Below are positions 1 to 725 of a DNA stretch of 725 bases, piece by piece. A model generated the notes under the pieces. It worked only from the letters and a program-made list of their open reading frames with translations. It did no database searches and was not told where the DNA came from. Position 1 is the first letter of the stretch; each line of letters opens with the position of its first letter. Source of the DNA: Escherichia coli. GTDB lineage: Bacteria; Pseudomonadota; Gammaproteobacteria; Enterobacterales; Enterobacteriaceae. The stretch lies in NCBI RefSeq assembly GCF_003334255.1, contig NZ_QOWU01000195.1, one strand, 5' to 3'. The position numbers and the translations under genes are program-made.

Positions 1-635
1 ATACGCTTCCAGTCTTCGCGGTCGTTGTCGATAACTTCATTTTTTGCCCAGCGATGGATGCTGCCGTCAATGTTTCCGGCATCCACATCACCAGGCCAGA
101 GAGCGTAGGCCAGTTCGTCATCCAGTGTTTTCCATGTCTGCTTGTATTCGCGATGAATGGCAGCAATGACCGGGCTGATTTTTCCTGTTGAATTTTCAGT
201 GTGCTGTTGATTGGTTCTGGCGCGGGCGAGATCAACAACAGACGTGTATTTTCCGGTTTCCTTGCGTTCACCTTCGCGACGTTTTTTCCAGATGCGCATC
301 TCTGCCTGAATTTCGGGCCATTTGGCACCAGGCTTACATTTATGCTTAACCCACCCGATGGCATGCAGCTTAAGCTCCGGATACATGGCGTTAACTTCTG
401 GCATTTTCATCAACGCTTCAACAATATGTCCGTCGAATGTTGCCATGTCTTCCTGCAACAATTCCTGTGCGCTAATAACCATATCAACGGTGATGTTTTC
501 ACATGTGTCGAACTTAACCATGACAGCGTTCTGTACTTCAGGGGCCAGCTTGTCAAAAGTGACGTTCATCGGATCTGATTCAGTCTCAACCGGGACAAAG
601 GAAGCAGACTCCTCATCCCAGCGGTTTTCCTGCAT
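1..635 (-). CDS. Uncharacterized protein, N-terminal 211 codons; partial CDS whose C-terminus lies beyond position 1
   Basis: Seen in sequence: the minus-strand frame is open across 1..671, with the upstream in-frame stop (TAA, complement 674-672) inside the IS1 end. The first ATG is at complement 635-633. Translation: MQENRWDEESASFVPVETESDPMNVTFDKLAPEVQNAVMVKFDTCENITVDMVISAQELLQEDMATFDGHIVEALMKMPEVNAMYPELKLHAIGWVKHKCKPGAKWPEIQAEMRIWKKRREGERKETGKYTSVVDLARARTNQQHTENSTGKISPVIAAIHREYKQTWKTLDDELAYALWPGDVDAGNIDGSIHRWAKNEVIDNDREDWKR, then 2 nt of the next codon. Composition is protein-like (balanced, many D/E/K/R/W) with enterobacterial-style codons (ctg, gaa, aaa, ccg). Both + strand track ORFs are antisense to it and have shadow-ORF composition (F/C/H-rich). 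The start codon is uncertain: there is no strong Shine-Dalgarno before ATG 635 (only a weak GGA about 12-14 nt upstream), and there are alternative in-frame starts at TTG complement 662-660 (inside IS1) and ATG complement 569-567. No catalytic or nucleotide-binding motif recognised by eye. Confidence 0.7.
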   Translation of the reverse strand, partial: MQENRWDEESASFVPVETESDPMNVTFDKLAPEVQNAVMVKFDTCENITVDMVISAQELLQEDMATFDGHIVEALMKMPEVNAMYPELKLHAIGWVKHKCKPGAKWPEIQAEMRIWKKRREGERKETGKYTSVVDLARARTNQQHTENSTGKISPVIAAIHREYKQTWKTLDDELAYALWPGDVDAGNIDGSIHRWAKNEVIDNDREDWKR

Positions 636-648
636 ATATTCAGCATCC

Positions 649-671
649 GGTGATGCTGCCAACTTACTGAT
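649..671 (+). repeat. IS1 left terminal inverted repeat (IRL), 23 bp
   Basis: Sequence GGTGATGCTGCCAACTTACTGAT at 649-671. The partner IRR should lie about 745 bp downstream, outside the window, so the inverted-repeat pairing cannot be verified here. Confidence 0.85.
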
Positions 672-672
672 T
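660..672 (-). promoter_or_regulatory. IHF-like binding site inside the IS1 IRL
   Basis: Minus strand reads AATCAGTAAGTTG, against the IHF consensus WATCAANNNNTTR (one mismatch, G for A at position 6). Established knowledge: IHF binds within the ends of IS1. The match is by eye only. Confidence 0.4.
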
Positions 673-677
673 TAGTG

Positions 678-683
678 TATGAT
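678..683 (+). promoter_or_regulatory. Candidate -10 hexamer of the insA promoter (TATGAT)
   Basis: TATGAT is a 5/6 match to TATAAT, sitting 20 nt upstream of the insA GTG. No good -35 lies at 16-18 bp spacing (GCTGCC and CTGCCA are poor), consistent with a weak promoter overlapping the IRL and InsA operator as described for IS1. Exact promoter placement is not certain from sequence alone. Confidence 0.3.
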
Positions 684-692
684 GGTGTTTTT

Positions 693-698
693 GAGGTG
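693..698 (+). promoter_or_regulatory. Shine-Dalgarno (ribosome-binding site) for insA
   Basis: GAGG(TG) at 693-698, leaving a 5-7 nt spacer before the GTG start at 704. This is standard spacing. Confidence 0.6.
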
Positions 699-703
699 CT
701 CCA

Positions 704-725
704 GTGGCTTCTGTTTCTATCAGCT
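704..725 (+). CDS. insA: InsA (IS1 transposition repressor, also the N-terminal part of the InsAB' frameshift transposase); first 7 codons only
   Basis: GTG start at 704-706 followed by gct tct gtt tct atc agc, giving M-A-S-V-S-I-S, which matches the known InsA N-terminus MASVSISCPSC. The last base, 725, begins the next codon. Preceded by a GAGGTG Shine-Dalgarno. Confidence 0.85.

Follow-up and report, generated by a model that had tools for sequence, protein, structure and literature searches.

The window, by which we mean the whole 725-nucleotide stretch of Escherichia coli DNA that was analysed, very probably contains the remnant of a prophage gene cut by an insertion sequence. Specifically, positions 1–648 correspond to codons 76–290 of an early-left gene of lambdoid prophages of the Qin/PPompW type (ydfE in E. 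coli K-12), an IS1 element lies in codon 75, and the interrupted copy is most likely non-functional.

The reading frame and the gene it belongs to

On the minus strand of positions 1–635, 211 codons are translated without a stop, and the same frame stays open for 12 codons further 5' of the ATG at 633–635, into IS1 (...ISKLAASPDAEYMQENRW...), which extends the stop-free stretch to 223 codons. A stretch of this length was reached in none of 2000 shuffles of the window (shuffle maximum, 202 codons). Compared with its PPompW homologue, with which it is 88 per cent identical, the window frame has a dN/dS of 0.15 (dS 0.46), indicating that the region has evolved as coding sequence. Positions 1–648 align without gaps to an annotated intact gene for an 823-aa protein in E. 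coli 3045 (WP_000048527.1; 646 of 648 nucleotides identical) and to TRITO_27 of phage Tritos (640 of 648 nucleotides, or 98.8 per cent), and at the protein level 210 of 211 amino acids are identical to residues 80–290 of the full-length protein. No stop codon interrupts any of the seven homologues aligned with positions 1–648, and the identity is ungapped. Judged from these comparisons, the minus-strand frame in 1–635 is a true coding sequence, and the preliminary description was right to regard it as protein-like.

The ungapped identity to E. coli 3045 and Tritos places positions 1–648 (minus strand) as an internal fragment of a prophage 'exonuclease' gene of the ydfE family. The fragment comprises the last nucleotide of codon 75, codons 76–290 and the first two nucleotides of codon 291 of a gene of approximately 823 codons. 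The ATG at 633–635 (minus strand), which had been taken for the start of the gene, is an internal methionine, Met80, in the alignment of full-length proteins (...SWDAEYMQENRW...). Every full-length homologue extends 79 codons upstream of this methionine, and the in-frame codons that precede it in the window, DAEY, are residues 76–79 of the full-length proteins. The fragment therefore lacks both ends of the gene: the earlier view of a partial gene holds for the absent C-terminus, but the N-terminus is absent as well.

The same alignments already refute the reading in which the ATG at 635 is the start of an independent, uncharacterised accessory protein whose gene merely lies beside IS1. Such a protein would agree with an ATG that opens a 211-codon stretch and with a fragment on which neither the local Pfam-A nor NCBIfam gave a family match. 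We consider it extremely improbable, because the homologues continue upstream of the ATG, the four codons before it match the full-length proteins, and the point where homology is lost is exactly the IS1 terminus.

By megablast, positions 1–648 lie inside annotated genes of ~2.47 kb (2472 nt) of temperate E. coli phages (Tritos, Evi, mEp460_ev081, HannyBb, PPompW and Stx2a phages) and of E. coli chromosomes. At least 80 per cent of the window is matched in 3487 of 5426 complete E. coli genomes, and nucleotide identity to intact phage and prophage copies over 1–648 is 98.8–99.7 per cent. The fragment matches PHROG 2082, a family that spans the whole 823-aa protein, with an E-value of 1.1e-161, and its residues 1–211 align to profile positions 80–290 of 823. 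The Pfam family YdfE_C (PF27432) is a precomputed match for a protein (P0004) that is 100 per cent identical to the fragment over 96 per cent of its length; both this family and YdfE_N (PF27430) come from a newer Pfam release and were taken from precomputed matches only. The local Pfam-A gave no match on residues 1–640 of the full-length protein. The fragment belongs to a family that is already known and named (ydfE, PHROG 2082, Pfam YdfE_N/YdfE_C), and the preliminary description, according to which it could be assigned to no family, is superseded on this point by the PHROG match and by the near-identical gene in thousands of E. coli genomes. Its suspicion of accessory cargo proved correct, in that the gene is a prophage gene (ydfE in Qin; lambdoid phages), as did its impression of an enterobacterial sequence (GC content of 48 per cent; 99.7 per cent identity to E. 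coli).

The IS1 junction

Position 648 is the last that is homologous to the intact gene, and position 649 is the first of the IS1 terminus (GGTGATGCTGCC). Since the break coincides exactly with this terminus, IS1 is inserted within codon 75. Positions 649–725 (plus strand) are the first 77 nucleotides of IS1, from its insA-proximal end, and are identical to the IS1 of phage P1 at 77 of 77 positions; the P1 annotation over the matching part reads 'insertion sequence:IS1 / terminal IR of IS1 / insA'. Within this end lie the terminal inverted repeat GGTGATGCTGCCAACTTACTGAT (649–671), the sole promoter-like site predicted in the window (656–683, plus strand) and the GTG start of insA (MASVSIS...) at 704 (plus strand), 55 nucleotides from the first base of IS1, the same spacing as in the IS1 that is annotated in E. 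coli 3045. The reading direction of IS1 is away from the truncated gene. As in IS1 insertion mutations (by elements of the IS1A/B/F type, including the IS1 of P1), the window shows the terminal inverted repeat at the junction, with only one IS1 end visible. The frame had been described as abutting a mobile element; the left end of IS1 is indeed there, but the element is inserted in the gene and not merely beside it. The comparison with P1 that had been proposed is of no help with the gene, as P1 matches positions 649–725 only and nothing in 1–648, and we reject the suggestion of cargo from P1, R100 or Shigella islands.

IS1 is known to generate a 9-bp target-site duplication. In the window, the 9 bp that adjoin the IS1 end, tcagcatcc (640–648), would be the duplicated target if the insertion was simple, and a repeat of TCAGCATCC would then be expected past the full IS1. 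In strain 300033, the 9-bp duplication of IS1 is seen as ggaatcgag.

In a megablast search with positions 600–700, the exact junction in one piece was absent from the 5426 complete E. coli genomes and from PLSDB plasmids. The junction was likewise not found in INPHARED phages, the exact 45-nt junction pattern had 0 matches in IMG/VR, and an exact-protein look-up had on record neither the 211-aa product nor the 220-aa product that would start from a TTG. The absence from complete genomes could be taken to mean that the junction is an assembly artefact, in which a short-read contig was joined to a 77-nt IS1 k-mer without any real insertion. The IS1 part is exactly 77 nucleotides long, a common assembler k-mer length, the window resembles a whole short contig, and partial proteins from contigs of 596–1090 nt end at the same residue. 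We regard an artefact as very unlikely, because a true insertion would break the homology precisely where the IS1 terminal repeat starts, as is seen here and as would not be expected of a chimeric join, and because comparable genuine insertions are found in closed genomes 11, 44, 79 and 170 bp away, upstream of the site in the window.

The partial proteins in question (P0005; 1196 member sequences) have R290 as their last residue, which is the point at which the window starts. We think it probable that the window represents a complete contig from short reads, with IS1 at one edge and, at the other, sequence that paralogous prophage genes have in common; the 'extended contig' to which the preliminary description referred may therefore not exist.

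Disruption of the gene in the window and in other strains

We propose that IS1 transposed into codon 75, leaving its insA-proximal end as window positions 649–725. Such an insertion would deprive the gene of its ribosome-binding site and start codon along with codons 1–75. The window copy has no intact frame from the native start, as codons 1–75 are missing from the window and IS1 lies in codon 75. IS1 is strongly polar, and its 768 bp would come to separate the body of the gene from the prophage promoter from which the gene is normally transcribed. In K-12, ydfE has been placed in a transcript that starts upstream of dicB (bioRxiv 10.1101/2024.09.21.614188), and an IS1 in codon 75 would thus separate the gene body from both the start codon and the promoter. 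With the start codon, the ribosome-binding site and 75 codons removed, and with IS1 interposed before the promoter is reached, the window copy is most likely a non-functional remnant. A disruption of the pseudogene type had been named in the preliminary description as evidence that would speak against its reading of the frame, and the window copy itself carries one, in the form of the IS1 that interrupts codon 75. The visible part of the locus consists of one IS1 end and codons 76–290, and the fate of the first 75 codons and of the 3' part lies outside the window.

A crude consensus scan predicted no sigma-70-like promoter on the minus strand of the window, and no Shine-Dalgarno-like sequence is present in the 15 nucleotides upstream of the Met80 ATG (ccggatgctgaatat). 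From the polarity of IS1, the lack of a minus-strand promoter at the IS1 end and the lack of a Shine-Dalgarno sequence before Met80, we infer that the window copy is not expressed. IS1 insertions can create functional hybrid promoters that face outward, and it is conceivable that the 5'-truncated gene is still expressed from a promoter at the IS1 end, either outward-facing or hybrid, with translation starting at Met80 or at a TTG in the IS1 inverted repeat and yielding a shortened protein that keeps the linker and the DEDDh exonuclease. The frame is open from inside IS1 (in-frame TTG at ~660–662) through the whole fragment, without stops or frameshifts, and for strain 1506 the PGAP annotation has, next to an IS1, an 'exonuclease' CDS of reduced length that is not called a pseudogene. 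Yet the minus strand of 636–725 has no promoter-like site and the ATG lacks a ribosome-binding signal. The first alpha/beta domain would also lose three of its five predicted strands together with its helices (residues 1–75 of 1–95), which would probably be destabilising, and PGAP labels comparable copies as pseudogenes ('incomplete; missing N-terminus'). On balance, we consider continued expression improbable and retain the reading of the window copy as a probably silent remnant.

Two open reading frames on the plus strand, of 125 aa (201–578) and 117 aa (322–675), run antisense to the conserved frame and are most simply explained as shadow ORFs; the second of them spans the junction between the gene and IS1 and thus cannot be an ancestral gene. 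Additionally, a terminator-like hairpin with a T-run is located at 262–279 (plus strand), inside the coding region and on the antisense strand. One such hairpin was found against 0.8 expected from shuffles, and we therefore treat it as a chance occurrence.

Independent IS disruptions of the same gene are present in other complete E. coli genomes (our IS1-disruption query detects IS1 in one orientation only), indicating that the gene is commonly inactivated. Besides the four sites upstream of that in the window, IS1 is found just upstream of the start codon in E. coli 3045. These IS hits, in the gene or just upstream of it, map to loci L003 (4659–5430), L007 (3198–3248), L008 (3237–3283), L009 (3324–3374), L002 (~4898) and L004 (6844). 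In strains E8 and EM20-18-50, the DNA past IS1 is not the 5' end of the gene, which implies that deletions followed the insertions. The repeated IS hits could reflect a target preference of IS1, or selection for silencing of the dicB-ydfD-exonuclease-xis-int operon. Another route of decay is seen in phage PPompW_132418 (L015 1405–3872) and in Stx2a phages, in which the homologue carries a pseudogene annotation ('frameshifted by deletion of ...'). The window is of minor importance by itself, adding a further IS-disrupted copy of a prophage gene that is very common in E. coli.

The YdfE module, the intact protein and RecE

The intact protein consists of three parts: an N-terminal YdfE module (residues 1–~340), an acidic linker with a CxxC...CxxC zinc ribbon (~445–625) and a DEDDh 3'-5' exonuclease domain of the Rv2179c-like type (PF16473; residues 641–812, E = 2e-62), which is the sole Pfam-A match on the full-length protein. 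PADLOC returned a generic DEDDh match in the C-terminal domain of the parent protein and nothing else. The window encodes part of the N-terminal module only and none of the nuclease, whose catalytic domain lies more than 1 kb beyond position 1.

An AlphaFold2 model of residues 1–345, built from a 27-sequence alignment, has a mean pLDDT of 90.5 and a pTM of 0.48, from which we conclude that the domains are well defined and their mutual arrangement is uncertain. Domain 1 (residues 1–95) is predicted to be alpha/beta. Domain 2, the core of the window-encoded part (codons 100–227; window 192–575, minus strand), is all-helical in the model, with helices at residues 111–121, 129–140, 146–156, 165–178, 185–206 and 212–227. 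A linker follows at residues 227–235 (pLDDT below 50), and helices resume at 247. The helical domain 3 (residues ~245–340; modelled helices at 247–257, 270–281 and 286–296) is common to RecE-type proteins, as indicated by PHROG 607 and NF007259. Its first half (codons 246–290; window 3–137, minus strand) is all that the fragment has in common with RecE-type proteins, and PHROG 607 matches fragment residues 145–211 (E = 1.6e-7). Of the module, ~60 per cent is encoded by the window: the last two strands of domain 1, domain 2 and the linker in full, and the N-terminal half of domain 3.

An exhaustive HMMER search with residues 1–345 against 1.84 billion representative proteins recovered 176 relatives at E <= 1e-3, many of them 500–1000 aa long with the module at the N-terminus. 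Foldseek comparison of the module model with the PDB gave nothing convincing (best E = 0.9), and PDB sequence searches with the N-terminal module gave nothing at E <= 10. A fold search of AFDB50 retrieved the same family only, in Escherichia, Shigella, Salmonella, Enterobacter, Serratia, Klebsiella and Yersinia, under the names 'exonuclease', 'exodeoxyribonuclease VIII' and 'uncharacterized'. Among 37 full-length relatives, the module is partnered at the C-terminus by Exonuc_VIII plus DUF3799 in four and by an Rv2179c-like domain in three, and in most of the remaining ones it stands before C-termini that are unassigned in Pfam. These 37 proteins are distributed over PHROGs 2082, 2489, 26058 and 607, with the module placed before other C-termini in 2489 and 26058. 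The two distant relatives that were examined occupy the early-left position of lambdoid prophages.

Because its relatives carry the module before different C-terminal domains, sequence comparison suggests that it may act as an adaptor, or as a targeting or regulatory module, for phage recombination nucleases. More tentatively, and with considerable doubt, one could imagine an adaptor or regulatory module that was set before several effector domains in lambdoid prophages of Enterobacterales and that might guide the attached enzymes to one shared target of the host or the phage. Independently of the window, the module may merit a biochemical look, since it folds confidently and recurs before different effector domains. 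A tentative lead concerns a putative Rad52/Sak annealase motif: the C-terminal consensus 'KKSLTDAIKKAL..LG' of PHROG 2489-type relatives resembles it, but Pfam Rad52_Rad22 was matched at no better than E = 0.05, in two of the 37 proteins, and a PDB sequence search on this annealase-like lead returned nothing. In one PHROG 2489-type relative (L010 7208–7768), an overlapping Sipho_Gp157 gene follows.

In Tritos and E. coli 3045, the gene is flanked by ydfD-dicB-dicF on one side and by xis-int on the other, and in every relative examined it has the early-left position between dicB-ydfD (or kil) and xis-int. The same slot of the early-left operon holds exo/bet in lambda and recET in Rac. Apart from this slot, RecE of Rac shares with the ydfE-type protein an acidic zinc-ribbon linker (~445–625 of the full-length protein versus ~416–592 of RecE) and the small helical domain at ~245–340. 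In BLASTP, similarity to K-12 RecE extends over residues 261–625 and is strongest from ~470 to 625 (RecE 451–592), including the zinc ribbon; the window fragment itself gave nothing significant against K-12 RecE (best E = 0.048). The N-terminal region of RecE has been described as being of unknown function (PMC11611040). Mosaicism is apparent between the genes for the 823-aa protein (L002 2401–4872) and K-12 RecE (L006 5287–7887), in which the linker is nearly identical over ~470–625 (RecE 451–592), the N-terminal ~240 residues are unrelated and the C-terminal nucleases differ.

The two proteins are distinguished by their nucleases: that of RecE is a PD-(D/E)XK 5'-3' enzyme, whereas the parent of the window fragment has a DEDDh 3'-5' domain (Rv2179c-like/RNase_T) and neither Exonuc_VIII nor DUF3799. 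The NCBIfam RecE model NF007259 aligns to residues 245–625 of a full-length relative and, in distant relatives, to the corresponding region; with 282.7 bits against a cut-off of 1269, obtained on the middle region only, the full-length relative falls short of RecE membership. Moreover, recT follows recE in Rac, but no recT adjoins the gene in Tritos or E. coli 3045, where xis and int come directly. Given the different C-terminal nuclease, the score below the cut-off and the lack of recT, 'exonuclease VIII' is a misnomer for the ydfE-type gene, and the name appears to have been transferred through the shared middle part. Annotation pipelines label the gene 'exonuclease', '3'-5' exonuclease' or, wrongly, 'exonuclease VIII'; the last label, though widespread, is misleading.

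In the literature searched, YdfE appears as a pseudogene or in gene lists only, and we found no report on its function. The parent gene of the window fragment is represented by the intact 823-aa '3'-5' exonuclease' of Tritos (TRITO_27) and E. coli 3045 (WP_000048527.1), which is complete and uninterrupted, whereas in the window IS1 interrupts the gene and none of the catalytic domain is encoded. The closest parallel is K-12 ydfE itself (b1577), a pseudogene of the cryptic prophage Qin that is located downstream of dicB-ydfD, represents the same gene as the window and differs from it at only three positions over residues 80–256. K-12 ydfE has likewise been inactivated by an insertion sequence, and the two copies have lost different parts: the K-12 copy keeps the N-terminus and lacks everything past residue 256 (IS2E), whereas the window copy lacks residues 1–75 (IS1) and reaches at least residue 290.
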